Shown: positions 4,610 through 46,030 of the stretch, piece after piece
Numbering within the stretch: position 1 is the first letter of the stretch
Layout of the letters: every line of letters begins with the position of its first letter
DNA from: an uncultured bacterium
GTDB lineage: Bacteria; Patescibacteriota; Microgenomatia; UBA1400; CG1-02-47-37
Assembly: GCA_963980215.1 (NCBI GenBank)
Contig: CAXBYZ010000004.1
Span: 1 to 54,793 of the forward strand
DNA: 54,793 bases
Reading direction: 5' to 3'
Position numbers and translations under genes: made by a program
The notes under the pieces: model-generated
What the model was told of the DNA's origin: nothing
Seen by the model: the letters and a program-made list of their open reading frames with translations, nothing else
Database searches by the model: none

Positions 4610-5479
4610 ATGTATATAGATACGCATTGCCATCTTAACCTGAAAGATTTTGAGAGTGATTGGAGAGAAGTGGTTGAAAAAGCTAAAAAAGCTGGTGTTT
4701 CAAAGATGATTGTGGTGGGAGCTGACTTAAGTTCTAGCAAGAGAGCTATAGAAATGGCGGAAGAAGTTGAAGGTCTTTATGCTGTGGTTGGATTTCACCC
4801 ACATCACTGTAAGGGTCTTGATGATGTTGATGAGATGATGGCCTCAATAGAAAAACTTACCAAAAACAAGAAAGTGGTGGCTATTGGTGAGTGCGGGTTG
4901 GATTACCATGTGTATCAAAAATCTAAGTATGAAAAAACTCAAGTAACTGAGGATCAAAAAAAATTGCAAAAACGGGTGTTTGGGAGACAAATTCAATTAG
5001 CTAGTAAATTGAATTTACCTCTAGTAATTCACAATCGAGAAGCTCAAAGAGATATTTTGGATACAATTGACCATTTTTGTAAAAGTGATGGCAAGTACCC
5101 AAAAGGAGTGTTTCATTGTATTTCTGGCTCTAAAAAATTTGTGAAACAACTGATAGAGAGGGGTTTTTATGTAGGGGTAGACGGAAATGTTACGTATAGT
5201 AGTGAGGTTCAGGCTTTAGTAGATGAAATACCACTTGAACGATTGTTGCTTGAAACTGATTCTCCTTGGCTAACACCGGAGCCGTTACGTAGCCAACAGA
5301 AGGTTCCGAACCGTCTTTCGCTAAAGCTGCAGACCGCTGATGGTTTGGAACCAAAATTGAGAAATACTCCTATAAGTGTTAGAATCGTGGCCGAGTACTT
5401 ATCTCAAGCAAAAAATGTTAGCTTAGAAAAAATAAGAGCCTCAACGACTAAAAATGCTGAGGCTTTGTTTAATATATGA
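4610..5479 (+). CDS. tatD: TatD family hydrolase carrying a ~20-aa palindromic-element insertion
   Basis: 'IDTHCH', 'GFHPH', 'IGECGLDY', 'LLLETDSP'; extra peptide between 'PEPLR' and 'RNTP'. Confidence 0.93.
   Translation: MYIDTHCHLNLKDFESDWREVVEKAKKAGVSKMIVVGADLSSSKRAIEMAEEVEGLYAVVGFHPHHCKGLDDVDEMMASIEKLTKNKKVVAIGECGLDYHVYQKSKYEKTQVTEDQKKLQKRVFGRQIQLASKLNLPLVIHNREAQRDILDTIDHFCKSDGKYPKGVFHCISGSKKFVKQLIERGFYVGVDGNVTYSSEVQALVDEIPLERLLLETDSPWLTPEPLRSQQKVPNRLSLKLQTADGLEPKLRNTPISVRIVAEYLSQAKNVSLEKIRASTTKNAEALFNI
5300..5352 (+). repeat. family-I doublet, subtype A cargo, inside tatD
   Basis: AAGGTTCCGAAC-cgtctttcgctaaagctgcagaccgctgat-GGTTTGGAACC; homologous to 24054-24105 and 44075-44126. Confidence 0.9.
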
Positions 5480-13553: not shown

Positions 13554-14551
13554 AGTTTGTTTTTAATTTCTTTAATTGTATATCTTTTTTGCTTAAGTTG
13601 GCGAATTTTTTTAATTTGTTTAATCATGCTTGAGTCGTAAAGCTGGTAGCCACCGTTTGAGTGACTGCTGACAGTGAGTAAGCTTTGAGTTGTCCAGAAC
13701 CTAATAGTAGAAACTGTTTCTTTTGAGGCTTTAGCTAATTGACCAATTTTAAGTAAAGGTGAAGGTTTTTTGCTTGAAGGTTCCGAACTAAATTTCGGAA
13801 AGTTCGGAACCCGCGGAACTCTGGCGGACAGATAAATATCTAAAGAATTATTGACTGATTGGTAAATTAATTTATAGTAGCTGTCCAAGCTACCGCCTAT
13901 CTGAGCGGTTTCTAAAGATTTTAGATAGGCAAGTCTATTTGTTAGCTTAATAATAATAGGCGGATAGCCTGCTTTAATTAAGAAAAGGTTCATTAGTAGT
14001 CTAGCGGTGCGACCATTTCCGTCTGCAAAAGGGTGAATAGTAACCAAGTGATAGTGAGCATCAGCGGCTAGCTTAACTGGATGAAGTGATTTATTTAAGT
14101 TAATTTTGTGAACAAATTTGGTCATTAAGGTTTTGATTTTTGTTGGATTAGGCATGATGACTCTGGATCCAGCAATTCTAACGGCAGTGCTTCTGTATCT
14201 ACCAGCACTTTGATCGTCTATTTTTGAGAGAATTATTTGGTGAAGATCTAAAATGTCATTTTCTTTTAGAGTGTAGTTTTTTTTAGCAAGAGAATAAACA
14301 TAATCCAAGGCTTGGGCATGATTAGTGGCTTCTAGGTGTTCTTTTAAAGATTTACCGTTAACAGTGATGCCTTTATCTAAAACTATCGCAGTTTGCTGTC
14401 GTGAAAGAGTATTACCCTCAATAGCGTTTGAGGTGTAGGTTAACTCGACTCTAAGCCAATCCTTAAGGTTTCTAGATAGATCCTTTGGAAGAGGCTTGGC
14501 CTGATCGAGTTTTTTCTTTTTATCGTCAATAATCTTAAGCAGGTTTTTCAT
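13550..14551 (-). CDS. Fic family protein with C-terminal MerR-type HTH
   Basis: 'SNAIEGN' autoinhibitory motif, 'HPFADGNGRTAR', C-terminal 'LKIGQLAK...TIRFW...GGYQLY'. Confidence 0.88.
   Translation of the reverse strand: MKNLLKIIDDKKKKLDQAKPLPKDLSRNLKDWLRVELTYTSNAIEGNTLSRQQTAIVLDKGITVNGKSLKEHLEATNHAQALDYVYSLAKKNYTLKENDILDLHQIILSKIDDQSAGRYRSTAVRIAGSRVIMPNPTKIKTLMTKFVHKINLNKSLHPVKLAADAHYHLVTIHPFADGNGRTARLLMNLFLIKAGYPPIIIKLTNRLAYLKSLETAQIGGSLDSYYKLIYQSVNNSLDIYLSARVPRVPNFPKFSSEPSSKKPSPLLKIGQLAKASKETVSTIRFWTTQSLLTVSSHSNGGYQLYDSSMIKQIKKIRQLKQKRYTIKEIKNKL
13777..13811 (+). repeat. family-I doublet in the Fic-MerR linker
   Basis: AAGGTTCCGAAC-taaatttcggaa-AGTTCGGAACC; encodes RVPNFPKFSSEP on the minus strand. 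Confidence 0.88.
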
Positions 14552-14675: not shown

Positions 14676-14713
14676 AAGGTTCTGAACTCGAACTTCTTTT
14701 GAAGTTCGGAACC
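14676..14713 (+). repeat. family-I doublet, intergenic (3' of groEL)
   Basis: AAGGTTCTGAAC-tcgaacttcttttga-AGTTCGGAACC, with internal CGAACTTC-tttt-GAAGTTCG hairpin. Confidence 0.85.
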
Positions 14714-22561: not shown

Positions 22562-22584
22562 ATTTAAGGTTCGGAACCTTAAAT
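22562..22584. repeat. family-I extended singlet overlapping the stop codon of ORF 22579-24222
   Basis: ATTTAAGGTTC-G-GAACCTTAAAT, identical to 23034-23056. Confidence 0.9.
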
Positions 22585-24222
22585 AATTTTGTCATTTCTA
22601 ATAAACTTTTGTAGTTCTTTTTCTGAGTAGTGGCGGACTTTATATTTGAGGATTTTAGTGGTGGAGAGCTTGGGGTTGTGGGGGTGGACGACTATAACGG
22701 AGCCGCCAATTTGCTTCATGAGCTTTCGTTTAGCGGGAAGGTTTGGGGTGTGGGCGGAGACGGCAAGAATGTCAGGTCTAATTTTTTTTAGTAATTTTAG
22801 GTGATCAGTTGGGTTATCAAATTTTTCTGGGAGAGAGAAAATTTGATCGGCAATCCCCCACTTTTTTAGGTTTTTAATTCTGGTGTTTATGGGGTTAATG
22901 GGGCGGTTTTTGCCTTTGAGTTTTTTGACCCGGACGTCTGTTTCGAGGCCGACTAAAAGGATGTTTGGTGATACACCTCCGAGGTGCACCGCAGGTGCAA
23001 CCTCACCTCGGAGGTGGTGAGATTGGGGTGAAAATTTAAGGTTCGGAACCTTAAATTTTTTGGCGGCTTTGAGAAATTTTTTGTGTTCCTCATGAAGAAC
23101 GTCGAAGCAGCCGGTGATGAGGATTTTGGTAGACATTGAAGGTTCCGAACTAGCCTCGACATTCGTCGAGGTCGTCCCGATTAAATCGGAACTGGAAGTT
23201 CGGAACCCTACACCTTTAAGGACTGTCCTTAGCTTGGCTTTGTATTCCTTTATAACTATTTTGCCGGTGGGACGAGGGTGAAAAAAGGCAGAGTGAAGGG
23301 TGACTTTTTCGTTGGTGATTTTTTTCTTCATGTAAGCATATTGAAGCTTGAAGGCGAGGAGGTTGAGATAGTTCAATACAGAAGGTTCGGAACTAGCTCC
23401 GGTGTTCACCGGAGTTGCAAGATTACTTGCTGAAGTTCCGAACCAACGAGGCTTGGTGGTTTTATCTTCTGTTAAGAACTGTTCTTGTAGGGCGTTTTTG
23501 GGTAGTGCATTGGGTAAGAATTTTTTGACCCAAGAGTTTGTAGAGATAAATTTTTCGTAAGTTTGGTCTTTATTGTAAAGGGGTTTGATTTGGCAAACTT
23601 CGTGAGCAGTGTAGAGATTGCGGCGAGATTTAGGTATAGAAATGGATGATTCTTCTAAGAAAAGGTTGAGGCAGATGGCATTCTCGGGTCCGAGTACGGA
23701 CTCGAGTCCTTTAAGGTCCGGCCTTAAAGGAGTACCTTCAAGAACGGACCTTTTTTGAGGACGACGACGGAGGTGAAAGATTTCTAGGAGAGGAATAACC
23801 AACAAGCGAGTCAACCAAAGACGGTTGGTGGTGGTGACAATCATAAGATCGATGTCGTCGTTTTTGTCTGAGTTGTTCATGGCTAAGGCTCCGGTGACGG
23901 CAATTAATTTAACTGAAGGGATAGCACTTAAAATTTTAGATATTTTTTTAGCTTTAGTTAACTTTAATTGACTAAAGTGATGGCGAGATTTGCGGATCTT
24001 GGCAAGATGGGAGCGGTTTGGGAGGTGGTAATAATTGGAGGTTTTCCCAATCAAAGGTTCCGAACTGCCTTTCGCTTTGCTGCAGGTTGCTGAAAGTTCG
24101 GAACCAACGAGTCCTGAAAGAACGGACCTTTTATCTGAAATTAGCCATTTAATTATCTCTTTCTTGGTTAGAGGATAGTCGAAAATATCGGCATAAGCGA
24201 GAGTTTTTAAGATGGCTTCCAT
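22579..24222 (-). CDS. fusion of a Pol-beta-like nucleotidyltransferase domain and a cytidylyltransferase-like domain, with many palindromic insertions
   Basis: N-part 'AVTGALA...DDIDL'; C-part 'ITGCFDVLHEEH...LVGLETD..VKKLKG.NRP'. Confidence 0.72.
   Translation of the reverse strand: MEAILKTLAYADIFDYPLTKKEIIKWLISDKRSVLSGLVGSELSATCSKAKGSSEPLIGKTSNYYHLPNRSHLAKIRKSRHHFSQLKLTKAKKISKILSAIPSVKLIAVTGALAMNNSDKNDDIDLMIVTTTNRLWLTRLLVIPLLEIFHLRRRPQKRSVLEGTPLRPDLKGLESVLGPENAICLNLFLEESSISIPKSRRNLYTAHEVCQIKPLYNKDQTYEKFISTNSWVKKFLPNALPKNALQEQFLTEDKTTKPRWFGTSASNLATPVNTGASSEPSVLNYLNLLAFKLQYAYMKKKITNEKVTLHSAFFHPRPTGKIVIKEYKAKLRTVLKGVGFRTSSSDLIGTTSTNVEASSEPSMSTKILITGCFDVLHEEHKKFLKAAKKFKVPNLKFSPQSHHLRGEVAPAVHLGGVSPNILLVGLETDVRVKKLKGKNRPINPINTRIKNLKKWGIADQIFSLPEKFDNPTDHLKLLKKIRPDILAVSAHTPNLPAKRKLMKQIGGSVIVVHPHNPKLSTTKILKYKVRHYSEKELQKFIRNDKII
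22974..23016 (+). repeat. family-III doublet (CACCT-CCG-AGGTG ... CACCT-CGG-AGGTG)
   Basis: Same architecture as family I with a different stem; inner hairpin GCACC-gca-GGTGC; encodes HLRGEVAPAVHLGG. Confidence 0.85.
23031..23059. repeat. family-I extended singlet, intragenic
   Basis: AAAATTTAAGGTTC-G-GAACCTTAAATTTT (14-bp perfect arms); encodes KFKVPNLKF. Confidence 0.92.
23139..23207 (+). repeat. family-I doublet with two inner hairpins at the domain junction
   Basis: AAGGTTCCGAAC-ta-GCCTCGAC.attc.GTCGAGGT-cgtc-CCGATT.a.AATCGG-aactgga-AGTTCGGAACC. Confidence 0.92.
23217..23231. repeat. family-IV triloop hairpin (TAAGGA-CTG-TCCTTA); a variant AAGAA-CTG-TTCTT lies at 23474-23486
   Basis: Perfect stems with a CTG loop, each next to a family-I doublet. 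Confidence 0.55.
23382..23444 (+). repeat. family-I doublet with two inner hairpins (loop order swapped)
   Basis: AAGGTTCGGAAC-ta-GCTCCGGTG.tt.CACCGGAGT-t-GCAAG.atta.CTTGC-tga-AGTTCCGAACC. Confidence 0.92.
23684..23752 (+). repeat. family-II composite element (69 bp)
   Basis: TCGGGTCCG-agta-CGGACTCGA hairpin plus the 40-mer AAGGTCCGGCCTTAAAGGAGTACCTTCAAGAACGGACCTT (23713-23752). Confidence 0.93.
24054..24130 (+). repeat. family-I subtype A doublet (24054-24105) plus an internally deleted family-II remnant (24108-24130)
   Basis: AAGGTTCCGAAC-tgcctttcgctttgctgcaggttgctgaa-AGTTCGGAACC, then CGAGTCCT-ga-AAGAACGGACCTT. Confidence 0.9.
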
Positions 24223-24223
24223 T

Positions 24224-25732
24224 TTATTTAGCTAAGCCGTATTGGGACAGAACCTGGGTAACACCTTGAGATAAATTTTGAAGAGTGGTTTTTTCTTGAT
24301 CATCTTTTAAGTATGAGTTAATGGCGTCTTCGTAGTACTTGATTAATTTATCGTTAAGACCATTGTCGAAAGTTTTTGAAGCTAGGGGCCACGATTGAGA
24401 TGAAATCGCCTGAGACAAGACAGCTCCTAGGTAGGGATCTGATTGCAAGCTTGAGGCCATATCTTGGCGGCTGTAGGGCTCACCAAACAAACGAATTTGA
24501 GAGGCAATTGAGTACATTTTGGTTAAAACTTCTTTAGTGCTTAGGTATTTTAAGAATTCCCAAGCTTCTTTTGATTGAGTAGAGTTTTTGGAAACACCTT
24601 CGATCCAGTAGGTAGCCCAAGCTACATTAGTGCCTGGTAACTGAGGAACTGGATACATCTTAAAGTTTAGTTGAGGATTGATGGTTTTTATCTCCAAAGC
24701 TCTCCAAGATGGAGCGATAAACATGGCAACTTTGCTGGTGGCAAAGGCATAAGTGGAAGCCGGTAAAGCCGTGTCCCAGCTTTTGTCTTGGGTGGCAAAT
24801 AGGGTGTAGAACTTCATGGCAGAGACAACTTCTTCTGAGTCTGGTTGAGCTGGGTCTCCTCCATTCTGGAGGATCATTAAGCCTAAAATGTCTGAGAAGT
24901 TATCTACATTACCTGTAGTCCCTAAAGCTACTCCCCCTCGAGTTAGTTTTTTGCCAGTTTGATCAAATTGACGTAGCTTGAAAGCGGTTTGGCGAAGGTT
25001 GTTCCAAGTAGTAGGCACTTTTAGATCTGGTGAGGTGGCCAAGATATCTTCGTTGACGTATAGAGAGAGGGCATCAAATTCTAGGGGGATGCCGTAGTAA
25101 CGACCGGCAGAGAAAACATCTTTTTTGACTACTGGGTAGAAAGTGGCGTCAAATTCGTTGCCTGAGTAGATGGCTTCAGGCATGGGTGAGAGGTCTGCTT
25201 TGAGCATTGGAAGCCAAGTGTTGTGGTATCTAAAAATGTCTGGGCCGTCACCTTTGGCTAGAGCAGATTGAAGACGCTCACGATAGTCTTTATGAGATTG
25301 CCTGACGTACTGGATATTGACGTTTGGATGGGCAGCTTGATAGTCGCTAATTATTTGGGAGATAGAAGATTCGGGTTCCCAAAGACCCCAGTACTTTAGA
25401 GAGATAATTTCTGGTTCTTTGTTTTTTGAAAATTGAGGAATAATAACCTTGAAGACTAATAGGGCGGCGAAAATGACAATACCCAGACCAATAAGGAGGG
25501 GTAAAAATCTTTTGAAGATTGGATCAATAACTTGAGCTGGCTCACCTGGCTCTGGAAAAGATGGTGGGGTCTCTTCTGGTGGTGGAACAGAATCTTCTTC
25601 TGTTGGAGTGTCTGGAAGAGGTGGAGAAACAGGAAATGGTGGAGATGCTGACTCTGCAGAATCATTAACTGGAGGAGTTGGAGGGGGTGTTGAAGTTTCT
25701 GCAGATGGTAGGACAGTATTTGAATCATTCAT
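24224..25732 (-). CDS. extracellular solute-binding protein (sugar ABC type) with Pro-rich cytoplasmic N-terminus and TM anchor
   Basis: 'LKYWGLWE', 'GDGPDIF', 'YYGIPL', 'AWEFLKYL'. Confidence 0.85.
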   Translation of the reverse strand: MNDSNTVLPSAETSTPPPTPPVNDSAESASPPFPVSPPLPDTPTEEDSVPPPEETPPSFPEPGEPAQVIDPIFKRFLPLLIGLGIVIFAALLVFKVIIPQFSKNKEPEIISLKYWGLWEPESSISQIISDYQAAHPNVNIQYVRQSHKDYRERLQSALAKGDGPDIFRYHNTWLPMLKADLSPMPEAIYSGNEFDATFYPVVKKDVFSAGRYYGIPLEFDALSLYVNEDILATSPDLKVPTTWNNLRQTAFKLRQFDQTGKKLTRGGVALGTTGNVDNFSDILGLMILQNGGDPAQPDSEEVVSAMKFYTLFATQDKSWDTALPASTYAFATSKVAMFIAPSWRALEIKTINPQLNFKMYPVPQLPGTNVAWATYWIEGVSKNSTQSKEAWEFLKYLSTKEVLTKMYSIASQIRLFGEPYSRQDMASSLQSDPYLGAVLSQAISSQSWPLASKTFDNGLNDKLIKYYEDAINSYLKDDQEKTTLQNLSQGVTQVLSQYGLAK

Positions 25733-25763
25733 ATGTGTGTTATTATCTTAACAAAGACCTCTT

Positions 25764-27503
25764 ATGATAAGCAACATATATAAAAAAACAGTAGTAATAT
25801 TATTGGGGATTTTAGCTGGAATTACAGGGATTATGTTGTTGTATGGAGTTTCTTATTCCCAAAAGATATATCCCTTTTTATATGTTGGAAAAACTAATGT
25901 ATCTAACTTGAGTATTGATGAGGCGGAAAAAATATTGAGAGAGAAAATTCCCGAAGGGTTACAAGTGCTTGATGTTTGGTTTGGAAATCAGAGCTTTGCG
26001 GTGGAAGCGAGTGAGCTGGAGTATGATCCAAAATTGACGGCGGATAAAGCTTATTTGGTGGGGAGAGAAGGAAAGTTTCTTGATAATTTTAAAACTAAGT
26101 GGAGCTTGTGGTTTAGCAAAAAATCTTTAAGTTTTGAGTATAAGCTTAATAGTGAGGTGTTGGAGGAGCAGGTTGATTTATTGATATCTCAAGTGTCGGC
26201 GCCACCGATTTACTACTCTCTTTCTCAAACTCCGGAGGGTCAGATAGTGGTTGTGCCTGGGAAGAGTGGAAGAGTGGTTAATAAGAATAAGCTGATGAAA
26301 GATATTGATAAAGGACTTAGTAACTTGGATTTTTCTAAAATAGTAGTTGAGGCGAGTTTGATAGAAGTTGTTGTGAGTCAAGAAGAGTTGGAAAAAGCAC
26401 AAAGGAGAGGAGAGTTATTGAAAGAGAGAGTTTTGAGTTTGAAGTATGGAGATGGTGAGAAAAAAATTGAAGGTCAGGGCTTGATTGATTTGATTGATTT
26501 TAAGGGTGGTTTTGATGAAGAAAAAGTTAAAAAATTGATGGGATTGGTGAGTGAGGAAGTAAACCGAGAGCCTCAAAATGCTGTTTTTAGATTTGAAGGT
26601 GGAAGAGTGGTTGAGTTTAAGCCGGCTATAGATGGTCTTTTGGTGAATGAAGAAATTTCTATTATTAAGGTGGTTGATGGTCTTTCCAGGCTAGAAACTC
26701 TTAACTGTAAAGAAGTTTGCGAAACAATTATTGTTAACCTAGAAGTAGAGAAGTCTGCTCCAGAAGTTAGAATTAGTGAAGTTAATAATTTAGGAATTGT
26801 TGAGTTAATTGGAAAGGGTGAGTCAACCTTTCATGGATCGATACCCTCTAGAGAACATAATGTGGCTCTAACTGCTTATAAGTTAGATGGGGTATTAATT
26901 AAACCAGGAGAAGTGTTTTCGTTTAATGGAAGTGTGGGTGATATTTCGGCAGCAACTGGATACCAAAGTGCTTACATAATTAAAGATGGAAGAACTGTTT
27001 TGGGTGATGGAGGTGGAGTTTGCCAAGATTCGACAACAATGTTTAGAGCAGCACTTGATGCTGGATTGCCAATTATTGAAAGACACCCTCATGCATATAG
27101 GGTGAGTTATTATGAGCAAGGGTCGCCGGTGGGGATTGATGCTACGATTTACTCTCCTTCTACTGATTTCAAGTTTTTGAATGATACGCCGGCACATATA
27201 TTAATTCAGACAAATGTGAATACTGTGAGCAATTATTTAAAAATTGAAATTTATGGAACAAGCGATGGGAGAGTAGCAACAATTAGCAATACTAGATTGT
27301 GGGACCAGTCTCCCCCGCCAGATCCCAAGTACGAAGATACCCCGTCACTGGCTACTGGAGTAGTAAAACAGGTAGACTGGGCAGCTTGGGGAGGAAAAGC
27401 GGCTTTTGATTGGAGGGTGGTTAGAGGAGGTGAAGTTCTACAAGAAAAAACTTTTTACTCAAGCTATAGACCTTGGCAAGCAGTGTACTTAAGAGGAATA
27501 TGA
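25764..27503 (+). CDS. VanW family protein with peptidoglycan-binding domains
   Basis: 'GEVFSFN', 'GGGVCQDSTT', 'ERHPHAY', 'DATIY'. Confidence 0.9.
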   Translation: MISNIYKKTVVILLGILAGITGIMLLYGVSYSQKIYPFLYVGKTNVSNLSIDEAEKILREKIPEGLQVLDVWFGNQSFAVEASELEYDPKLTADKAYLVGREGKFLDNFKTKWSLWFSKKSLSFEYKLNSEVLEEQVDLLISQVSAPPIYYSLSQTPEGQIVVVPGKSGRVVNKNKLMKDIDKGLSNLDFSKIVVEASLIEVVVSQEELEKAQRRGELLKERVLSLKYGDGEKKIEGQGLIDLIDFKGGFDEEKVKKLMGLVSEEVNREPQNAVFRFEGGRVVEFKPAIDGLLVNEEISIIKVVDGLSRLETLNCKEVCETIIVNLEVEKSAPEVRISEVNNLGIVELIGKGESTFHGSIPSREHNVALTAYKLDGVLIKPGEVFSFNGSVGDISAATGYQSAYIIKDGRTVLGDGGGVCQDSTTMFRAALDAGLPIIERHPHAYRVSYYEQGSPVGIDATIYSPSTDFKFLNDTPAHILIQTNVNTVSNYLKIEIYGTSDGRVATISNTRLWDQSPPPDPKYEDTPSLATGVVKQVDWAAWGGKAAFDWRVVRGGEVLQEKTFYSSYRPWQAVYLRGI

Positions 27504-29029
27504 AAATGTTGCGCCCTCAAAGGTCCGGCCTTAAAGGAGTACCTTCAAGAACGGACCTTACTATGATAATAGTATTGGGTTTGTTAGGGTTACTATTAGT
27601 TCAGTGGTTGACTCCCAATATTTGGGGGGCAGATGGGTATTACCATATTCAACTGGCGGAGATGTTTAAGAATAGTGGTTTTTTGAAAACTTTGCCTCAA
27701 GCTAGATTTTCTCATTTTGTTGATAGATTTTCTAATAAAGATTGGCTCTATCACCTAGTGCTAGTACCCTTTACTGGTTTTAATAACCTTTTTGTGGGAG
27801 CAAAGTGGGCAGCTTTTGTGTTTGGAGGAATTTTATATAGTAGTTTGTTGATGGTTGCTAGTTACTATGTTTCTAGTGTTGGTTTGATAATTGTAGGGGT
27901 GTCCCCTTTTCTATCTAGTCATTTTATTCAGACTTTGTCTCGACCCAGACCGATGGTGCTGGGAATTACTCTTGGTCTATGGGTGGTTCACTTTTTGATT
28001 CAGAAAAAAAACAAGCAAGTTTTTTGGGGGTCTTTGGTTTACTCGATGATGCATATTACTGCGCCTTTGGTGATTGGATATGGAGTGGTGGTGAGTTTCT
28101 GGAGATGGTTGTTTAAAGAAAATTCCAGGTACGGAACCTGGAATTTAGTGGGGATGGCTGTTTTGGGAGTTTTGGGCGGGTTTATTCTACATCCTAATTT
28201 TCCTAATAACTGGTTTTATTTTTACTTAAACGGAATCTTGGTGCCGTTTTTCGCAGCCCGCTGGGGGGTTTTGGAGTTGGGGGCAGAGTTTTTTCCGATG
28301 ACCACCTTGGATTATTTTAAAAATTATCCCTTAATAGTTTTGGGATTGTTGTTTATGGTAGTAGTGGTTTTGGTGGAGAGACCAAAAGTAAAGAGTGAGA
28401 CTCAGGTAATGTTTTTGTTGACAAGTGTGTTTGTGGTGATGGGGATGATGAGTCAGAGATATATTGCTCATGGCTATCCTTTTATGGTTTTGAGTTTAGC
28501 TATGTTTGTTAGTGATTGGCACAGAGATAAGGAGTTTAAGAAATTTTTGAAGAAGATTGAGGGGGCAGTTAACTTAATTATGGTAAGTGGACTAATTATA
28601 GTGATATTGCTGATATTTAGTGGTTTTAAGAGAATGGTGGCAACGGCTAAGGGAACCAGCGTGATGAATGGCCACTACGAAGAGATGGGTGGGTGGCTAA
28701 AGGATAATGTGCCTGAAGGTGAGTTAATCTTTCATTCTAACTGGTCTGACTCCCAGTACTTTATTGGAGTTAATCCCAAAAATGATTATTTTGTAACTAT
28801 GGATCCTGTTTATATGTGGCATAAAAATCAAGAGGTGTATAAACTTTACCGAGCGGTGGCGTTTGGGCAAATCGAGGATCCTTATAAAGTTTTGAAAGAA
28901 GGGTTTAAAGTAAATTATGGTTATGTGGGGAAGAATTATTTTTCCGCTTTGGTTGATCAAATTAACAATGATGAGCGGTTTGAGGTGGTTAAAGAAGACC
29001 AATTTGGATTAATTTTTAAGTTAAAGTAA
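27500..29029 (+). CDS. GT-C-like polytopic membrane protein
   Basis: 'GADGYYHIQLA', 'WLYHLVL', many TM helices; start is ATG 27500 or 27563. Confidence 0.65.
   Translation: MKMLRPQRSGLKGVPSRTDLTMIIVLGLLGLLLVQWLTPNIWGADGYYHIQLAEMFKNSGFLKTLPQARFSHFVDRFSNKDWLYHLVLVPFTGFNNLFVGAKWAAFVFGGILYSSLLMVASYYVSSVGLIIVGVSPFLSSHFIQTLSRPRPMVLGITLGLWVVHFLIQKKNKQVFWGSLVYSMMHITAPLVIGYGVVVSFWRWLFKENSRYGTWNLVGMAVLGVLGGFILHPNFPNNWFYFYLNGILVPFFAARWGVLELGAEFFPMTTLDYFKNYPLIVLGLLFMVVVVLVERPKVKSETQVMFLLTSVFVVMGMMSQRYIAHGYPFMVLSLAMFVSDWHRDKEFKKFLKKIEGAVNLIMVSGLIIVILLIFSGFKRMVATAKGTSVMNGHYEEMGGWLKDNVPEGELIFHSNWSDSQYFIGVNPKNDYFVTMDPVYMWHKNQEVYKLYRAVAFGQIEDPYKVLKEGFKVNYGYVGKNYFSALVDQINNDERFEVVKEDQFGLIFKLK
27520..27559 (+). 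repeat. family-II 40-mer
   Basis: Identical to 23713-23752; reads RSGLKGVPSRTDL in the host frame. Confidence 0.95.
28120..28146. repeat. degenerate family-I extended singlet, intragenic
   Basis: AAATTCCAGGT-acgga-ACCTGGAATTT (core one mismatch from GGTTCGGAACC). Confidence 0.75.
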
Positions 29030-29046
29030 AATATAAATATCGTATA

Positions 29047-29085
29047 TTGACATATATACATAAGTATGTTAGTATGTATATATGT
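29047..29085 (+). promoter_or_regulatory. vapBC promoter/operator
   Basis: TTGACA at 29047; perfect 13-bp inverted repeat ACATATATACATA (29050-29062) / TATGTATATATGT (29073-29085) covering the ATG. Confidence 0.78.
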
Positions 29086-29330
29086 TAACTAGAACCACTG
29101 TGACTTTGCCAGATTATTTAATTGAAGAGGCTAAATACTATGCCGTTTCTCATAAGACTAATTTGAGTCAATTAGTAAGAGAATCTTTAGCAGATAGAAT
29201 ACAGCTAAATTCTTCTTCTAGTCGAAATTCCATATTAAAATTAGCCGGATCACTTAATCTTGGTGGCAAACAACCCCCAAGCCGAAGTGAGCTGTATGAG
29301 AAACATCTTAAGCAAAAGCTTGGCCTTTGA
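29082..29330 (+). CDS. ribbon-helix-helix antitoxin (VapB-like)
   Basis: 'RTTVTLPDYLIEEAK...NLSQLVRESL'. Confidence 0.8.
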   Translation: MLTRTTVTLPDYLIEEAKYYAVSHKTNLSQLVRESLADRIQLNSSSSRNSILKLAGSLNLGGKQPPSRSELYEKHLKQKLGL

Positions 29331-29733
29331 TACAAATATATTAGTTTACTTGTTGGATAAAAAATCTGTTTTTCATGAAGAAACAGTAAATGCAGTTTTA
29401 AAAATTGAGTTAGATAAATTTAAACTAGTGATAGCTCAACAAAGTATTGTGGAGTTGGTTTCTGTGTTGACTGGTCATTATGATTTATCGTTGAAGGAAG
29501 CTTCAAATAAGGTAAGTCAAATTATTGATTCTAAAATTTCAATTGTTTCTCCTTTGCCTCAAACGACAAAAACATATCTTGAGTTGTGTAGAATAAATAA
29601 AAAATCAAAAAATCATTTTGATTTATTTCTGGCAGCTACTTTAATAGATAATAAAATTAATCAAATAATGACTAATGATAAATTTGGATTTAAGAATATT
29701 GAACAACTTAAAGTAATATTAATAAAAAAATAA
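29296..29733 (+). CDS. PIN-domain toxin (VapC-like)
   Basis: 'FDTNILVY', 'VEL', 'FDLFLAAT', 'TND'; likely ATG at 29296. Confidence 0.85.
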   Translation: MRNILSKSLAFDTNILVYLLDKKSVFHEETVNAVLKIELDKFKLVIAQQSIVELVSVLTGHYDLSLKEASNKVSQIIDSKISIVSPLPQTTKTYLELCRINKKSKNHFDLFLAATLIDNKINQIMTNDKFGFKNIEQLKVILIKK

Positions 29734-29739
29734 AAAAAT

Positions 29740-30738
29740 CTAAATTAAGTGTTTGGGTGGGGTTTTGTTGAAGTGGGCAAAAGCTTGTTTGGTAGCAACC
29801 CTGCCTTTGGAGGTGCGTTTTAAGAAACCGATTTGAAGCAAGTAGGGCTCGATAACCTCTTCGAGGGTATCTTTTTCTTCGGCGATGGTGGCGGCTAGAG
29901 TGTCTAAGCCGACTGGTCCGCCCTGATGTTTGTTAATCAAGGCTTTTAACAATCTCTGATCGTTGGCGTCAAGTCCCATGGCGTCAACTTCTAAAAGCTT
30001 CAAGGACTCGTTTAAAACAGATTCAGTAATAGCTGACTCCCCTTTTATTTGAGCCATGTCTCGACATCGTTTTAAGAGTTTTAGGGCGATTCTGGGTGTG
30101 CCTCGGGAACGAAGAGCTAGTTTTTTGGCAACGGATCCATCAATAGTAATTTTGATTTTGGTGGCGGCGTTTTTGATGATTTGAACTAAGTTATCTGGAT
30201 TGTAAAAAGTAAAACGGTGAGTGATGCCAAAACGATCTCTTAAGGGGGCGGCAATTAAGCCAATTCTGGTGGTGGCTCCGACTAGGGTAAATTTAGGAAG
30301 CTCCAGCTGAAGAGTTCTAGCTGATGGTCCTTGGCCGACGACAATGTCTAAACGATAGTCTTCCATAGCTGGGTAGAGAGTTTCCTCAACCACTTTGCTG
30401 AGCCGATGAATTTCGTCAACGAAAAAAATATCACCGTCGTTTAGGTTGGTAAGGATCGAGGCCAAGTCCCCGGCTCTCTCGATAGCCGGACCACTAGAGG
30501 TTCTGATGTTAACTTTCATCTCTTTGGCAATGATGTGAGCCAGGGTGGTCTTGCCTAGTCCAGGAGGGCCATAAAGCAAGATGTGTTCTGAAGCTTCTTT
30601 TCTTTTTTTTGCGGCTGATAAGGCAACGGTGAGAGCTTTTTTGATAGTAGATTGACCGATGAACTCATCCCAAGAGTCAGCTCTTAAATTTTTAAAAGTT
30701 TTTTCTGGTAATGACGATGGTTTTTTTGGTGAAGTCAT
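29740..30738 (-). CDS. ruvB: Holliday junction helicase RuvB
   Basis: 'GPPGLGKTTLA', 'DEIHRL', 'PLRDRFG', 'EPYL'. Confidence 0.98.
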   Translation of the reverse strand: MTSPKKPSSLPEKTFKNLRADSWDEFIGQSTIKKALTVALSAAKKRKEASEHILLYGPPGLGKTTLAHIIAKEMKVNIRTSSGPAIERAGDLASILTNLNDGDIFFVDEIHRLSKVVEETLYPAMEDYRLDIVVGQGPSARTLQLELPKFTLVGATTRIGLIAAPLRDRFGITHRFTFYNPDNLVQIIKNAATKIKITIDGSVAKKLALRSRGTPRIALKLLKRCRDMAQIKGESAITESVLNESLKLLEVDAMGLDANDQRLLKALINKHQGGPVGLDTLAATIAEEKDTLEEVIEPYLLQIGFLKRTSKGRVATKQAFAHFNKTPPKHLI

Positions 30739-31307
30739 TTTTGACCTAAATACTTGATAGCTTTTTTGATTTTATCTTCAATTTTGTCTTCCGGATTAGT
30801 AGATTGATTAAGGGCTTGATGCGCTTGGTGTTTGCTAAAACCAAGGCTGATTAGAGCTTGGATGGTTTCTGATGTTTCTGATGATTCGCCGAGGAGATCT
30901 AGATCATTTAAATCCCCTAGTTTGGGTTTGAGTTCGATGATGATTTTTTGAGCGTTCTTTTTACCCAGTCGCTTAACGCTGGTAAAGAAGTCAACATCGG
31001 CTTTGGAAACAGCAGTGGTAATGGCTGGTACCCCTTTATCGATTAAAGTAATGGCGGTTTTGGGGCCAATGCCGGAAATGTTAATTAGGAGTTTAAATAG
31101 GTAAAGATCTTCTTTGGAGGCAAAGCCATAAAGGTCAAGGGCGTCTTCTTTGACGTGGGTGTGAATGAAGAGGGTGGTGATTTTTTCTTTGATGATTTTT
31201 TGCTGAAGAGATGGAGGGGTAAATACTAGGTAGCCGACACCATTGACATCAATAATAATTGAGTCTTGGTCAAATGTTTTTGGTTTACCTGTTAGTTGGG
31301 CGATCAT
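30735..31307 (-). CDS. ruvA: Holliday junction protein RuvA
   Basis: 'MIAQLTG', 'VNGVGY', 'ISGIGPK', 'ALISLGF'. Confidence 0.96.
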   Translation of the reverse strand: MIAQLTGKPKTFDQDSIIIDVNGVGYLVFTPPSLQQKIIKEKITTLFIHTHVKEDALDLYGFASKEDLYLFKLLINISGIGPKTAITLIDKGVPAITTAVSKADVDFFTSVKRLGKKNAQKIIIELKPKLGDLNDLDLLGESSETSETIQALISLGFSKHQAHQALNQSTNPEDKIEDKIKKAIKYLGQK

Positions 31308-31319
31308 ATATTGTAGATA

Positions 31320-31823
31320 TTATACCTTAAGGTTCGGAACCAAGTGACCTTTCATTTTGTGAGTGAAGGCGTGAGTGAGGGCGACGGCGAGGGCGTCGGC
31401 GGTGTCGTCTGGTTTAGGGATGGTGGTTAATTTTAAGATAGTTTTTGTCATTTGTTGGACTTGGTTTTTGTCGGCCCGACCATAGCCAGTGACGGCCATT
31501 TTTATTTGGAGAGGTGAGTAGGAAAAACAAGCAAGCTGATTAATCTCTCCAGCTAGTAAGATGACTCCCCTAGCTTGACCGACTTTGATAATGGTGGTTT
31601 GATTTTTGAAAAAGAAGAGATCTTCGACAGCCAAGGCGTCTGGTTTGGTGGTTTTGATAATTTTATTAAAGCTATCAAAGAGGTCTTTAAGACGAGCAGA
31701 GTCTGACTTACCCGGTTTGGTTTCTAAACAACCGTAGTTCCCGACTGTTTGGTTGCCAGATTGATCGTTAATAATTCCCCAGCCAAGACGGGCACTGCCT
31801 GGATCGACGCCTAAAATTTTCAT
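31320..31823 (-). CDS. ruvC: crossover junction endonuclease RuvC
   Basis: 'ILGVDPG', 'AVE', 'DDTADALAVA'. Confidence 0.96.
   Translation of the reverse strand: MKILGVDPGSARLGWGIINDQSGNQTVGNYGCLETKPGKSDSARLKDLFDSFNKIIKTTKPDALAVEDLFFFKNQTTIIKVGQARGVILLAGEINQLACFSYSPLQIKMAVTGYGRADKNQVQQMTKTILKLTTIPKPDDTADALAVALTHAFTHKMKGHLVPNLKV
31329..31341. repeat. family-I singlet forming the RuvC C-terminal tail (LVPNLKV*)
   Basis: AAGGTTCGGAACC. Confidence 0.75.
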
Positions 31824-31843
31824 AGTTGTATTATAATACCTTT

Positions 31844-34075
31844 ATGGATAAAACTTATAAAGCATCAGATCATGAGGGGAAGATTTACCAGAAATGGGAG
31901 GAGTCGGGGGCGTTTGCACCTAGTGTAAACGGGAAACCATTTACAATTATTATGCCGCCGCCGAATGCTAATGACCCGCTTCATGTGGGACATGCCATGT
32001 TTATCTCAGTTGAGGATATCTTTATTCGATATAAGAGAATGCAAGGGTTTAGCACTTTGTGGTTGCCGGGAACAGACCACGCTGGGATAGAAACACAGTT
32101 TGTTTTTGAGAAGAAATTAAAAAAACAGGATAAAAGTCGATTTGACTATGACAGGGAGACTTTGTATCAAATGATTTGGGATTATGTGCAAGAAAACTCT
32201 GAGGTGGCAATTAATCAAATGAAGAAGCTTGGAGCTAGTGCTGACTGGAAGAGGAAGAAGTTTTCCTTGGATAAAGATGTTGTTGAGAAAGTTCTTGATA
32301 CTTTTATTCAGTTACATAAAGATGGGCTTATTTACAGGGACAACAAACTGGTTAATTTCTGTACTAGGTGTGGGACTGCATTTTCTAACTTGGAAGTTGT
32401 TCATACTGAGAAGAAATCTCCACTTTACTACATGAAGTATGGGCCATTTGTGTTAGCAACAACAAGGCCAGAAACTAAGTTTGGTGATACGGCAGTAGCC
32501 GTTCACCCCAAAGATAAGAGATATGCTAAATGGATTGGTAAGGAGATAGAAGTTGAGGGGTTGCTGGGTAAATTTATGATAAAAGTAGTGGCGGATGAGT
32601 ATGTGGATCCTAAGTTTGGAACTGGAGTGGTGAAGATAACTCCGGCACATGACTTTAATGACTTTGAAGTGGGTAAGAGACATAAGTTGGAAGTTAAGCA
32701 GGTGATTGGTTTTGATGGAAGATTAAATAAACACTGTGGAGAGTATGCTGGCTTAACGGTGTTTTCGGCCAGAGAAAAAGTGGTAGAGGGTTTGGAGAAA
32801 AAAGGTTTGATGGAAAAAATTGACAAAGATTATGTTCACTCCGTGGGGAGTTGTTATCGATGTGGGCGAGCAATTGAACCTCTTCCCTTACCTCAGTTTT
32901 TTATTAAAGTGAAGAATTTAACCAAGACCGTGCTTAAAGCTTTGAAAGAAAAAAAGGTGAAAGTTTATGGTTCGGGACATGAGAAAATATTAAAACACTG
33001 GCTAGAAAACTTAAATGATTGGAATATTAGTCGACAGATAGTTTGGGGGATTCGAATTCCGGTGTGGTACTGCAAGAAGATTGAAGGTTCCGAACTAGCC
33101 CAATCAAAGATTGGGTTGGCTAAAGCCAGAAGTTCGGAACCCTGTTATGTTGTTAGTAAAGATAAGCCAAACAAATGTAGTAAGTGTGGTTCAACAACGT
33201 TTGCACGGGATGAGGATACTTTTGACACATGGTTTTCTTCTGCACAGTGGCCGGTGGTGACTTTAAAAACAGGCAAAAAATCTGATTTTGAGAAGTTTTA
33301 TCCAACAGATTTGATGGAGACTGGATATGATATTCTTCCCTTCTGGGTGATGAGAATGTTGATGATGGGATTGTACTCAACTGGAAGAGTACCTTTTAAA
33401 AGTGTTTATCTTCATGGAATGGTGAGAGATGGTAGAGGACAAAAGATGAGTAAGAGTAAGGGTAATGTTATTAATCCGGTGGAGATTGTGGATAAGTATG
33501 GGGCCGATGCTCTAAGAATGGCCTTAGTGATGAGTAGTACGGCTGGAAATGATAAGTCTGTGGGGGATGAGACAATTAGAGGAATGAGAAATTTAACTAA
33601 TAAGATTTGGAATGCGGCGAGGTTTGTGATGGAGTTTTTGCCGGAGACGGCTAATAATCAAGGTTCCGAAGAACCTTTTTCGGGTTCGAGTACGAACTCG
33701 AGTCCTCAAAGGTCTGGCCTTAAAGGAGTACCTTCAAGAACAGACCTTAGTCAACAAAGTTCGAAACCATCTAGTTTTGAAGGAGATAAAGAGTTTGAGG
33801 AAGAGATTTCCAAGATTGTAAATGAGGTGACCAAACAGCTTGAAGACTACAAGTTGGGGTTGGCGGCGGAAACGGTGTATAACCAGTTTTGGCATTGGTT
33901 TTGTGATGAGTCCATCGAGTCGGCTAAAGAAGGTAAAGTTAGCTACCCTGTTTTGATGAATGGATTAAAGACATTTTTGAAACTTCTTCATCCTTTTGTA
34001 CCATTTGTAACAGAAGCAGTTTGGCAAGAACTTGGTGAAGAACAATTATTGATTACAAGTAAATGGCCTATTTAA
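31844..34075 (+). CDS. valS: valine--tRNA ligase (no C-terminal coiled coil; two element-derived insertions)
   Basis: 'PPPN', 'HVGH', 'GTDHAGI', 'WNISRQ', 'DTWFSS', 'KMSKS'; likely start MDKTY at 31844. Confidence 0.96.
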   Translation: MDKTYKASDHEGKIYQKWEESGAFAPSVNGKPFTIIMPPPNANDPLHVGHAMFISVEDIFIRYKRMQGFSTLWLPGTDHAGIETQFVFEKKLKKQDKSRFDYDRETLYQMIWDYVQENSEVAINQMKKLGASADWKRKKFSLDKDVVEKVLDTFIQLHKDGLIYRDNKLVNFCTRCGTAFSNLEVVHTEKKSPLYYMKYGPFVLATTRPETKFGDTAVAVHPKDKRYAKWIGKEIEVEGLLGKFMIKVVADEYVDPKFGTGVVKITPAHDFNDFEVGKRHKLEVKQVIGFDGRLNKHCGEYAGLTVFSAREKVVEGLEKKGLMEKIDKDYVHSVGSCYRCGRAIEPLPLPQFFIKVKNLTKTVLKALKEKKVKVYGSGHEKILKHWLENLNDWNISRQIVWGIRIPVWYCKKIEGSELAQSKIGLAKARSSEPCYVVSKDKPNKCSKCGSTTFARDEDTFDTWFSSAQWPVVTLKTGKKSDFEKFYPTDLMETGYDILPFWVMRMLMMGLYSTGRVPFKSVYLHGMVRDGRGQKMSKSKGNVINPVEIVDKYGADALRMALVMSSTAGNDKSVGDETIRGMRNLTNKIWNAARFVMEFLPETANNQGSEEPFSGSSTNSSPQRSGLKGVPSRTDLSQQSSKPSSFEGDKEFEEEISKIVNEVTKQLEDYKLGLAAETVYNQFWHWFCDESIESAKEGKVSYPVLMNGLKTFLKLLHPFVPFVTEAVWQELGEEQLLITSKWPI
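33084..33141 (+). repeat. family-I doublet with two inner hairpins inside valS
   Basis: AAGGTTCCGAAC-ta-GCCCAATC.aaa.GATTGGGT-TGGCT.aa.AGCCA-ga-AGTTCGGAACC. Confidence 0.93.
33660..33768 (+). repeat. nested element in valS: degenerate family-I arms enclosing a family-II composite (33680-33748)
   Basis: AAGGTTCCGAA...TCGGGTTCG-agta-CGAACTCGA...AAGGTCTGGCCTTAAAGGAGTACCTTCAAGAACAGACCTT...AAGTTCGAAACC. Confidence 0.92.
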
Positions 34076-41210: not shown

Positions 41211-41238
41211 AAGGTTCCGAACTCGGAAGTTCGGAACC
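41211..41238 (+). repeat. minimal family-I doublet between rpmH and dnaA
   Basis: AAGGTTCCGAAC-tcgga-AGTTCGGAACC. Confidence 0.88.
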
Positions 41239-44067: not shown

Positions 44068-46030
44068 AGTCGTTAGGTTCCGAACTGCCTTTCGCTGGCG
44101 CTGCAGGCCGCTGAAAGTTCGGAACCGTGGCCGGTGAGGGTGCAGGGGTAGATGTTGGGTTGGTTGCGGGGGCGGGCTGTTTGTTGGCCAGTACTTCTTT
44201 GGGGTCACTGGTGATAAGAGCGTGTTCGTCTGGTGAGGCAACCACCTTTACAGCTACGTGGTTTTGACCAGCGAAGATAATACCGTGGCCAATGCCGGCC
44301 CCTAAAAGTAAGTGTTTTTCTCCTTCGGAAAGGTAAAAGATTTTAGCTAGCTTGTCGATAGCGGCGGTACTTTGTTTCATTAAAATTTGAATTGAAGAGT
44401 TGGTGACGATGGCTTTGCCGTAGTCTGAGGAGAGAAAGTCTTCGACATCTTGAGTGATGGTGGTTAAACCCAGATAGTATTTCCTGGCCCTTTTGGCCAT
44501 GGAGTAGAGGAAGCTAGCTGAGTCTGGGTATTTCATCATGTACCAAGCCTCGTCGACGACTAGTAGCCTTTTTTTTAGGTCTTTTTTAACTTTTGTCCAG
44601 ATGTGATCTAGAATCATGAACATGGCAATAGGGCGAAGGGCATCTTCTAGTTCCTGAATAGAGAAAACAGTAAAAGTGTTTTGAATGTCAACATTGGTGT
44701 GTTGGTCAAAGATGCCCCGAAAGGAGCCTTTGACAAATTTTTCTAGGCGAGCGGCCAAGTTAAGGGCAGCGGTTTCTTCCATGCCGATTAAAACTTTATA
44801 CAGGTCTTCAAGGAGAGGGGGTTCTTTTTTTTGAGTGGCAGGGTCGGGGGTGATGCCTTTTTGTTTGTAGGTTAAGATAATACTTCTATCTAGAAGAGCT
44901 TCTTCTTGAGGGGAGAGGTCACCCATGATGATTTTAAAGAGGGAGTGAAGAGAGAGAATTTTTTGGGAAAGTTCGTTTTGACCTTCTTCATAAACTTGAG
45001 ATAGGTCAAAGGGGTTTATTTTTGAAGTAGATTTAAAAGAAAATTGAATGTATTGACCGCCCACGGATTCACAGAGTTTTTGATACTCGTTTTCAGGATC
45101 GATAATGATGACTTCAGTGTCAAACATTAATGACCTTAGGGCTTCAAGTTTAACAAGGTATGATTTACCAGCACCAGATTTAGCAAAGACGACGGAGTTA
45201 GCGTTTTCAAGAGAAAATCGGTCGAGAATAATGAGAGAACTGTTGTGCTGATTGATGCCGTACAAAACACCCGTATCTTGAGTTAACTCTGAAGAGGTAA
45301 AGGGAAAAGTGGTGGCTAGAGAGGTGGTGTCCATGTTTCTGGTGATCATTAGTCGATCTTGAGCTAAAGGGAGAGTGGTTTTGAAGGCGTCATTCATTTG
45401 AAGGCTGGCTGGTTTGGCAATGATCATGAGCGAGCCTAGGGCTGATTGAACTTGTTTGGTAATTTTATTTAATTCTTCTAAGGAGTCGGCAGGGATAGTA
45501 ATGTAGAGGCCAAATTGAAAGAATCTCTCAGAGCCTTTAGCTAACTCAATTTGAAGAGACCTGGCATCTTCTAGTTGAACTTTGGTGGAGACGTCGGCAA
45601 TTTTACCCCTTTCAATGTCTGACTGGATCTCGGCCTCCATTTCCCCGACTTTTCTTCTTAGATCACTCATGATGCCACGGCCATCGATGGGGTAGATATA
45701 CATGGAAATATTAAGAGAGTGTCTAAAGTTGATTAAGGGGGAGAGCCAGTTGGCGTTGACAAAGCGAGGGTAGCCAGAGACAAAAAGGGTGCGAAAGTAG
45801 GTGTTGTCAATTTTTTGGTGAGAAAAGTCAATTTCGATGGCTGAGGGGGCAATTATATCCTGGACAGAGGTGACTCCTCGGGAGAACTGATCTTGTTCAA
45901 AGCTGGTTTCTTGTTTGGTTTGTTTCGGGGTGGCCTGAGAAGCCGGGTTTGGGGTTGGCGAGTCACCTGGTTTTTGATCAGCTTTTGGGGTCGATGGAGG
46001 TTTTTTGGGTAGAGAAAGATTAAGTTTCAT
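44042..46030 (-). CDS. VirB4/TraC-like ATPase
   Basis: Walker A 'AKSGAGKS', 'IIDPENEY', 'VVDEAW', 'RARKY', 'ITQ'; likely start MKLNL at 46030. Confidence 0.88.
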   Translation of the reverse strand: MKLNLSLPKKPPSTPKADQKPGDSPTPNPASQATPKQTKQETSFEQDQFSRGVTSVQDIIAPSAIEIDFSHQKIDNTYFRTLFVSGYPRFVNANWLSPLINFRHSLNISMYIYPIDGRGIMSDLRRKVGEMEAEIQSDIERGKIADVSTKVQLEDARSLQIELAKGSERFFQFGLYITIPADSLEELNKITKQVQSALGSLMIIAKPASLQMNDAFKTTLPLAQDRLMITRNMDTTSLATTFPFTSSELTQDTGVLYGINQHNSSLIILDRFSLENANSVVFAKSGAGKSYLVKLEALRSLMFDTEVIIIDPENEYQKLCESVGGQYIQFSFKSTSKINPFDLSQVYEEGQNELSQKILSLHSLFKIIMGDLSPQEEALLDRSIILTYKQKGITPDPATQKKEPPLLEDLYKVLIGMEETAALNLAARLEKFVKGSFRGIFDQHTNVDIQNTFTVFSIQELEDALRPIAMFMILDHIWTKVKKDLKKRLLVVDEAWYMMKYPDSASFLYSMAKRARKYYLGLTTITQDVEDFLSSDYGKAIVTNSSIQILMKQSTAAIDKLAKIFYLSEGEKHLLLGAGIGHGIIFAGQNHVAVKVVASPDEHALITSDPKEVLANKQPAPATNPTSTPAPSPATVPNFQRPAAPAKGSSEPNDSTPAPSPA
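44046..44152 (+). repeat. family-I subtype A doublet (44075-44126) flanked by a perfect 23-bp direct repeat
   Basis: GCCGGTGAGGGTGCAGGGGTAGA at 44046-44068 and 44130-44152. Confidence 0.93.

Follow-up and report, generated by a model that had tools for sequence, protein, structure and literature searches.

The stretch of DNA analyzed here, a 54,793-nucleotide (nt) contig (C4, CAXBYZ010000004.1; hereafter the window) from an uncultured member of the Patescibacteria, raises the question of why a short repeated element that can fold into a Y recurs inside protein-coding genes and how it came to be there. The genome to which the window belongs (G000) comprises 820,410 bases in 45 contigs with 39% G+C, and the metagenome runs that contain this stretch are marine or seawater. 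At three sites in the window, two short inverted palindromes, or arms, enclose two hairpins according to a common plan: arm GGTTCNGAAC, TAG, hairpin 1, T(C/T), hairpin 2, (G)GAA, arm GTTCNGAACC. An earlier reading of the DNA from its sequence alone (the original prediction) had proposed that the three sites share one plan, and this is borne out by the sequence at each of them. We refer to them as Y doublets A, B, and C and give their scores with R1, a covariance model built on six 61-nt copies with the Y structure.

23139 to 23207, plus strand: Y doublet A; core from GG to CC at 23141-23207, 67 nt; within the open reading frame (ORF) at 22579-24222 on the minus strand, an opposite-strand reading; 56.2 bits with R1.
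23382 to 23444, plus strand: Y doublet B; core 23384-23444, 61 nt; same host ORF as doublet A; 89 bits with R1.
33084 to 33141, plus strand: Y doublet C; core 33086-33141, 56 nt; within a valyl-tRNA synthetase-like ORF, a same-strand reading; 43.3 bits with R1.

Each arm contains the self-complementary core GGTTCNGAACC, and the arms are exact inverted copies of each other. The presence of two hairpins between inverted arms means that either strand, when single-stranded, folds into a three-way junction. Folded as DNA, doublets A, B, and C do form a three-way junction on either strand, with z-scores of -6.04, -8.49, and -7.91 on the plus strand and -6.55, -8.14, and -8.02 on the minus strand, respectively, and none of 200 shuffles was as good in any case. 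The central arm bases of doublet B are exchanged, with G..C in place of C..G, and its arms remain complementary because both centers have been exchanged. The original prediction had pointed to this swap at 23382, and the observation both stands and extends to other copies, with complementary arm centers in 27 of 27 (C/G 17, G/C 8, T/A 1, and A/T 1). Matches to the arm motif with at most one mismatch number 58 in the window, against 3.13 expected and a largest shuffle value of 7.

The same architecture recurs in a narrow set of relatives. A census pattern with the arms, TAG, and GAA fixed and the remainder free matched at 31 places, which lie in four of the 14 family genomes (9 in G000, 1 in G001, 14 in G002, and 7 in G003), and the reversed control pattern had no match in the family genomes. 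An order-wide search of 151 genomes returned the same four, which represent 2 of 95 genera. After exclusion from later counts of one copy without a locus (G002:C113) and collapse of duplicates, 28 distinct copies remained, 27 of which were taken in by the parse into arms and hairpins. The minimum-energy fold contains two hairpins, and hence the Y, in 27 of the 28 distinct copies from the four genomes. Shuffling only the cargo between intact arms gave a mean z of -3.47 over the 28 copies, and so shuffled spacers fold worse; on this point and on the shared topology of additional copies, the outcome favored the original prediction. Hairpin 1 is perfectly Watson-Crick paired, with 3 to 7 pairs, in 27 of 27 copies, and the base of hairpin 2 is constant among the parsed copies as TCG ... 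C-T-GA with a bulged T.

Covariation among the copies shows what is maintained. At E <= 4e-6, a cutoff chosen because reverse-strand matches were to be kept out, model R1 recovered 26 top-strand copies (alignment A4). This cutoff lost three true copies scoring 31-32 bits (L025, L045, and L046) and gained two (L024 and L042) that the script pattern had missed. Two other alignments were set aside in favor of A4: a structurally inconsistent MAFFT alignment (A1) and one in which both strands and other doublet families were mixed (A3). In A4, 98.6% of 590 cells are paired, and changes on both sides of a pair occur in 13 of 25 pairs (71 cells). The covariation score is 0.291 as compared with 0.096 in shuffles and none of 500 shuffles matched any observed measure, in an alignment fitted to the structure and of copies related to each other. 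Sliding the partner columns by 1 to 3 positions left at most 58.7% of cells paired. A covariance test of the kind that the original prediction had proposed found pairing kept beyond both the shuffles and the slid controls. Hairpin 1 has double changes in all seven of its pairs. Arm cells are 99.3% paired and the arm center covaries; 8 of the 11 arm pairs are invariant, which indicates that primary sequence is conserved in the arms as well. Also conserved as letters are TAG and the TCG...C(T)GA base of hairpin 2, and both the junction letters and the near lack of unpaired junction bases are constant across 26-27 copies. G-T pairs account for only 5 of the 590 cells.

These results divide the claims first made for the locus. 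Stems were said to be unrelated in sequence yet paired; the pairing holds, but the hairpins are drawn from a small shared set of recombined types and are not unrelated. It was also suggested that selection or copying acts on a single-stranded DNA (ssDNA) or RNA junction rather than on primary sequence or peptide. The first half of that suggestion survives in that pairing is kept and stem sequence is not, and the peptide is indeed not kept, with both orientations and five frames in use; the exclusion of primary sequence fails at the arms, TAG, and the base of hairpin 2. The ssDNA version is supported by the rarity of G-T pairs, the lack of orientation bias, and the 16 Y1/HUH genes of the genome described below. 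The signal is DNA-like and not mRNA- or peptide-like: the two strands fold alike, few G-T pairs are used, and the copies lie 10 in the same and 15 in the opposite orientation to their genes in five frames. The data are compatible with recognition of three separate helices as well as with recognition of the whole junction.

The doublets reside in genes. Open frames of at least 100 amino acids contain 25 of the 28 copies, and the remaining three lie in open stretches of 34, 35, and 64 amino acids. Five frame and orientation combinations are used, and the host genes are mutually unrelated, including a tRNA synthetase, a nucleotidyltransferase, and others. Two host genes lie in the window.

22579 to 24222, minus strand: host gene 1, encoding a nucleotidyltransferase/cytidylyltransferase-like protein of 547 amino acids (Pfam PF01467; orthologue alignment); carries doublets A and B and a further doublet at 24056-24105.
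31826 to 34075, plus strand: host gene 2, encoding a 749-amino acid protein, valyl-tRNA synthetase-like judging from conserved motifs and genome-wide matches, with matches in 31 of 31 relatives searched; carries doublet C.

Doublet A is absent from the G009 and G010 orthologues, and the G003 orthologue has a different insert near the site. The orthologues in G003 and G009 lack doublet B, and the one in G001 carries another insert at that place. Doublet C is read as about 20 additional residues of the loop that follows the first Cys of a zinc-finger-like motif; the L003 and L005 orthologues have a 7-residue linker at this site, and in those of G001 and G003 the loop is occupied by palindromic inserts unrelated to doublet C. 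Comparison with orthologues thus identifies the window copies as insertions, missing in some relatives and replaced by other palindromes in the same loops elsewhere, a pattern of turnover. The ORF at 22579-24222 contains at least six palindromic inserts of several families, and its orthologues are 70-100 residues shorter; besides the doublets, the inserts include a single GGTTCGGAACC palindrome at about 23038-23058, a hairpin near 23000-23025, and a AGGACTGTCCT-type palindrome near 23216-23232. The valyl-tRNA synthetase-like gene has a second composite palindromic insert at 33663-33767 that adds about 40 residues, has degenerate arm-like ends around other palindromes, and is absent in the aligned orthologues. 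Relatives in G010, G012, G008, G003, and G001 (L002, L006, L008, L010, L051, L053, and L054, a set described as lacking the GGTTCNGAACC core) have other recurring peptides, likewise encoded by palindromes, at the corresponding loops of these proteins. Palindromes inserted in frame therefore seem to characterize the entire family, the repeat families differing by genus.

The flanks of the 28 copies show no direct repeats and no extended inverted repeat, and the only conserved letters before the core are A at -1, in 28 of 28 copies, and A at -2, in 19 of 28. Core lengths are mostly 1 or 2 modulo 3, with a skew of about 17 : 10 : 2 across the 28 Y doublets (L021-L050), and, of the 17 cores for which two further letters would make the total a multiple of three, 15 are preceded by AA. 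This is only a hint, from a post hoc reading of related copies, that element length is shaped for reading frames. Target-site duplication was ruled out, the arm centers being complementary and not identical.

A candidate for the enzyme that handles the doublets is encoded in the same genome. It has 16 intact Y1_Tnp (IS200-like, HUH) genes of about 208-226 amino acids, all above the Pfam cutoff, and 16 of 16 retain the N-terminal YH..NRG, HUH, and YIH.NP tyrosine motifs. One of these genes, with its palindromes, is in the window.

51436 to 52062, minus strand: Y1 (HUH) tyrosine transposase-like gene, 208 amino acids; Pfam Y1_Tnp 35 bits against a cutoff of 23.
51413-51423, 51855-51865 (internal), 52085-52095, and 52131-52141: cores of GGTTACGAACC-core palindromes around and inside this gene.

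The Y1_Tnp scores of these proteins are 31-50 bits, as compared with 100-138 bits for classical 140-150-amino acid IS200 transposases of other genomes in the order. In a PDB search, a profile of 21 relatives had E. coli TnpA-REP (4ER8) as its best match (E = 1.3e-6) and the ISDra2 transposase next (1.7e-3). The nearest named relatives of the Y1 protein are from Patescibacteria metagenome-assembled genomes, some labeled Candidatus Beckwithbacteria. A perfect palindrome of at least 9 bp lies within 350 nt of 11 of the 16 Y1 genes; eight are accompanied by two or three copies of a palindrome of their own, located upstream, downstream, and inside; and in five (C14, C23, C5, C4, and C15) the palindrome apex is the core of the doublet arm, GGTTCNGAACC or GGTTCGTAACC. 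The GGTTCNGAACC core is enriched over control sites only in the four genomes with Y doublets (40 vs 5 in G000, 26 vs 2 in G001, 26 vs 3 in G002, and 7 vs 1 in G003), and six other family genomes have 0 sites; the doublets co-occur with Y1 genes flanked by palindromes of the same core. Y1 genes number 11 in G001, 18 in G002, 9 in G003, and 1-9 in the others of the family. At about 0.65 kb each, the 16 genes make up roughly 1.3% of the genome, and they are diverged paralogues rather than recent copies of one insertion sequence. An internal palindrome lies at a conserved position, about +186 nt, in a variable loop before the HUH motif (C14, C23, C5, C8, C15, C19, C7, and the window gene). Internal and flanking palindromes match within each Y1 paralogue and differ between paralogues.

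In-frame repeats that fold into a Y, in a genome that also has many REP-type transposase genes, look like a branched, gene-dwelling relative of REPINs. We put at roughly 60% the probability that the doublets are lineage-specific, REP/REPIN-like, nonautonomous ssDNA elements of about 55-70 nt, tied to RAYT-like Y1/HUH enzymes and translated as inserts in their host proteins. Enzymes of the Y1/HUH class, such as IS200/IS605 TnpA and E. coli TnpA-REP, act on ssDNA and recognize hairpins plus a few flanking bases rather than long sequences. The expanded RAYT-like Y1 set may similarly copy or keep the elements, presumably through a single-stranded intermediate, in which case only copies that still fold would propagate and compensatory changes would accumulate. 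In a gene-dense genome, such elements would land in coding sequence, and copies would survive where the frame stays open and the loop is tolerant, there to be translated as 17-24 extra residues. One pair of copies suggests recent copying: a glycosyltransferase-like ORF in G002 (G002:C16, L025) has identical Y doublets at 6019-6077 and 6661-6719, 642 nt apart. In the G000 orthologue of this ORF, the first of these sites also holds a Y doublet, and the second holds another kind of insert.

Several observations weigh against a REPIN-like mobile element. The copies lack the extragenic location of REPINs, since 25 of 28 are in ORFs, and orthologues confirm that the hosts are real genes. There are 16 enzyme paralogues in the genome, five of which share one core, rather than the single-copy RAYT typical of REPINs, and the window Y1 protein scores 37.6 bits with the NCBIfam RAYT equivalog REP_Tyr_transpos, whose cutoff is 80. 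A PDB search with a single Y1 sequence gave no match. The repeats that flank Y1 genes are simple palindromes and not Y doublets, and hairpins tagged with GTAG or CGTC are not enriched, with 8 and 2 in the genome as compared with 9 CTAG-tagged hairpins in a shuffled genome. Nothing seen amounted to a transposition event, an empty site, or an excision product; the orthologues, at 54-80% amino acid identity, give no empty site close enough to fix the element ends and target. In addition, two G000 copies occupy the same position of orthologous genes in other genomes, where the flanking proteins are 65-70% identical. C36:781 and its counterpart on G002 C16 share their arms, are nearly identical in hairpin 1, and differ entirely in hairpin 2; C31:496 and G003 C10:12214 differ in the arm center (A/T vs C/G), in the apical pair of hairpin 1 (C-G vs T-A), and in the class of hairpin 2. 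Same-site copies with compensatory differences imply that the fold is maintained or replaced in place, or that hot spots are hit repeatedly, and they fit in-place maintenance or replacement at least as well as fresh transposition.

Metagenome contigs provide a view of the elements at the population level. Contigs from four independent DNA runs contain no joint that skips a doublet, rare variants being beyond the contigs' reach. Doublets A and B are unchanged in independent marine contigs (X6 record 9 and X8 record 26), and the unchanged copies come from runs of at least three studies from 2012 to 2020. One contig of run X6 (record 16) matches the window through 33141, the last base of doublet C, and then diverges, and in a contig of run X5 (loose end at 33110) the right half of doublet C is continuous with the left half of a sister copy on C8. 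Switching during assembly at the shared arm and hairpin 2 probably accounts for both contigs, although they may reflect real recombination between copies. One-nucleotide differences at 24076 and 24078 in run contigs look like misplaced alignment of sister copies.

Comparison with known systems places the doublets nearest to the REPIN/RAYT (TnpA-REP) systems of Proteobacteria (Bertels and Rainey 2011, PMC3116915; structure 4ER8, PMC3479197). As in those systems, two inverted short palindromes form a larger hairpin, here with exactly inverted arms; the Y1/HUH gene is flanked by its repeats, as seen for the eight genes with their own palindrome and the five with an arm-type core; and a genome contains several families of repeats, with a separate enzyme gene for each, which are inherited in a lineage-restricted manner. 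Classical REPINs are about 100 bp, almost only extragenic, and present in hundreds of copies alongside a single-copy RAYT, according to bioRxiv 10.1101/2021.07.10.451892. The elements here are 55-70 nt, branched, mostly in ORFs, and few, with nine pattern matches in G000; they carry no GTAG or CGTC tag and are accompanied by 16 enzyme paralogues. A literature search of main texts, supplements aside, found no report linking RAYT/REPIN to Patescibacteria or the candidate phyla radiation.

Other systems share individual traits. IS200/IS605 elements such as IS608 and ISDra2 rely on recognition of ssDNA hairpins with a short guide sequence at the hairpin foot, and in IS608 a bulged T in the hairpin is a recognition feature; hairpin 2 here also has a constant bulged T. 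The transposases of IS200/IS605 elements, whose gene-less derivatives are the PATEs (Quentin et al. 2018, PMC6006769), belong to the same superfamily as the Y1 proteins here. Two differences separate these elements from the doublets: the ends of the doublets are not distinct, their arms pairing together with no definable conserved target tetranucleotide, and the Y1 proteins here are about 210-226 amino acids with weak Y1_Tnp scores rather than the classical 140-150. Integron attC sites are recognized as folded single strands, with conserved structure, free sequence, extrahelical bases, and a variable, sometimes branched distal part, and in these respects the doublets may resemble them. They differ in being recombined by the tyrosine recombinase IntI and in lying between cassettes in arrays, not in ORFs. 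Rickettsia palindromic elements (RPEs) are longer than the doublets, at about 100-150 bp, and are not known to have an associated transposase; we know of no description of a branched fold with covarying hairpins for them. RPEs resemble the doublets in behavior and not in membership, as in-frame palindromic inserts in tolerant regions of apparently functional genes. Palindromic repeats in frame within genes are known from Rickettsia and from some REPs, according to Di Nocera et al. (2013, PMC3733652). Our search of main texts without supplements found no in-frame palindromic inserts reported for Patescibacteria or Parcubacteria, and the PMC3733652 supplement of intragenic REPs may hold related cases.

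A more far-reaching possibility, which we consider clearly less likely than not, is that the doublets constitute an undescribed class of branched ssDNA elements in essential Patescibacteria genes, in which the junction itself would be read by a radiated RAYT-like family and the copies would be kept folded in place, with hairpins swapped like cassettes. The hairpins do behave as modules. Hairpin types are common to copies and genomes and are re-assorted, such that the same hairpin 1 is combined with more than one class of hairpin 2; one type takes the hairpin 1 position in G003 but the hairpin 2 position in G000 and G002, and a near-identical hairpin is found in a different outer palindrome on C20. 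The re-assortment and the C20 palindrome favor modular exchange.

This same modularity underlies an alternative that we consider unlikely, namely, that the doublets are composites in which hairpins nest and recombine between two protein-binding palindromes, so that each helix would be kept separately and the Y would be an unselected by-product. The sharing and re-assortment of hairpin types, the single hairpin 1 found with different hairpin 2 classes, and the C20 hairpin all fit, as does the orthologous site in G000 and G002 at which hairpin 2 is wholly different between the same arms and hairpin 1. The same arms also enclose unstructured or very short cargo at other places in the window.

24056 to 24105, plus strand: second-family doublet in which the same arms, paired with each other, flank about 30 nt of weakly structured cargo; no clear Y fold.
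44076-44126 and 5302-5352: sister copies of the doublet at 24056-24105.
13779 to 13811, plus strand: short doublet in which only 13 nt separate the same arms.
14678-14713 and 41213-41238: further short doublets.
23040 to 23050, no strand assigned: single palindrome with core GGTTCGGAACC at the apex, within host gene 1.
22568-22578 and 31331-31341: cores like that at 23040-23050.

Perfect hairpins with a stem of at least 8 and a loop of 3-5 number 211 genome-wide as compared with 34 in a shuffled genome, 137 of them within open frames, and the commonest apexes are GGTTACGAACC (25) and GGTTCCGAACC (20). Against a composite, hairpin 1 is not free-standing above the shuffled level: of 16 units in the genome that consist of CTAG plus a hairpin, 9 are inside Y doublets and 7 outside, as compared with 9 in the shuffled genome, which indicates that the Y behaves as one unit. 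The constancy of the junction letters (TAG, TCG...C(T)GA, and the bulged T) and the near-zero count of unpaired junction bases across 26-27 copies also weigh against it.

It is improbable, to our minds, that the doublets are mostly old, vertically inherited residents whose fold is used by the host, whether in replication, recombination, fork pausing, or as the site of a domesticated Y1 enzyme, with ongoing transposition not needed. The same-site orthologous copies, with their compensatory differences and with flanking proteins that are only 65-70% identical, and the unchanged copies in runs spanning 2012 to 2020 would be expected of such an element, and the Y1 genes, as diverged paralogues with their own palindromes, resemble domesticated RAYTs. 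However, many orthologues have no copy or have another element in the same loop, identical copies occupy two sites of one G002 gene, and position gives no indication of function, the host genes being unrelated.

Less probable again is an RNA element, in which the Y would regulate through its structure in the mRNA, act as a ribozyme, or be excised as a small intervening sequence. The fold is equally stable under RNA-type pairing and the elements lie in transcribed regions, but the copies occur in both orientations (10 same and 15 opposite), G-U pairs are almost unused, and the host frame is open in 25 of 28, which would be needless for an excised element. A search of the window against Rfam 15, including its small ribozymes, returned at gathering score a single tRNA and no doublet match, and Rfam matches in the region 22900-24300 with E up to 10 were at chance level and far below cutoffs. 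A hammerhead-like core was rejected separately, on a by-eye comparison with the consensus, because the junction strands do not fit. Finally, selection of the inserts for the residues they add is very hard to credit and a peptide function was rejected because five frames are in use: although one frame in both orientations starts with G-S-E and many inserts end with S-S-E-P, the five frame and orientation combinations yield unrelated peptides, conservation tracks base pairing and not codons, and the host proteins are unrelated.

Descriptions of REPIN/RAYT systems place them outside genes and mostly in Proteobacteria, with unbranched elements and a single-copy enzyme, and the Patescibacteria case differs on each of these points. 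If the link to the Y1 enzymes of the preferred, REPIN-like reading is true, these genomes would offer a compact natural system in which to study the reading of DNA shape by HUH enzymes, as well as an instance of selfish or domesticated DNA evolving under the constraints of fold and reading frame at once. The same link would make the doublets a source of lineage-specific protein inserts that can mislead annotation and alignments of these genomes. Should the doublets instead represent a branched class whose junction is itself read, they would amount to a structure-coded population of replicators within coding sequence that diversifies the surface loops of host proteins.

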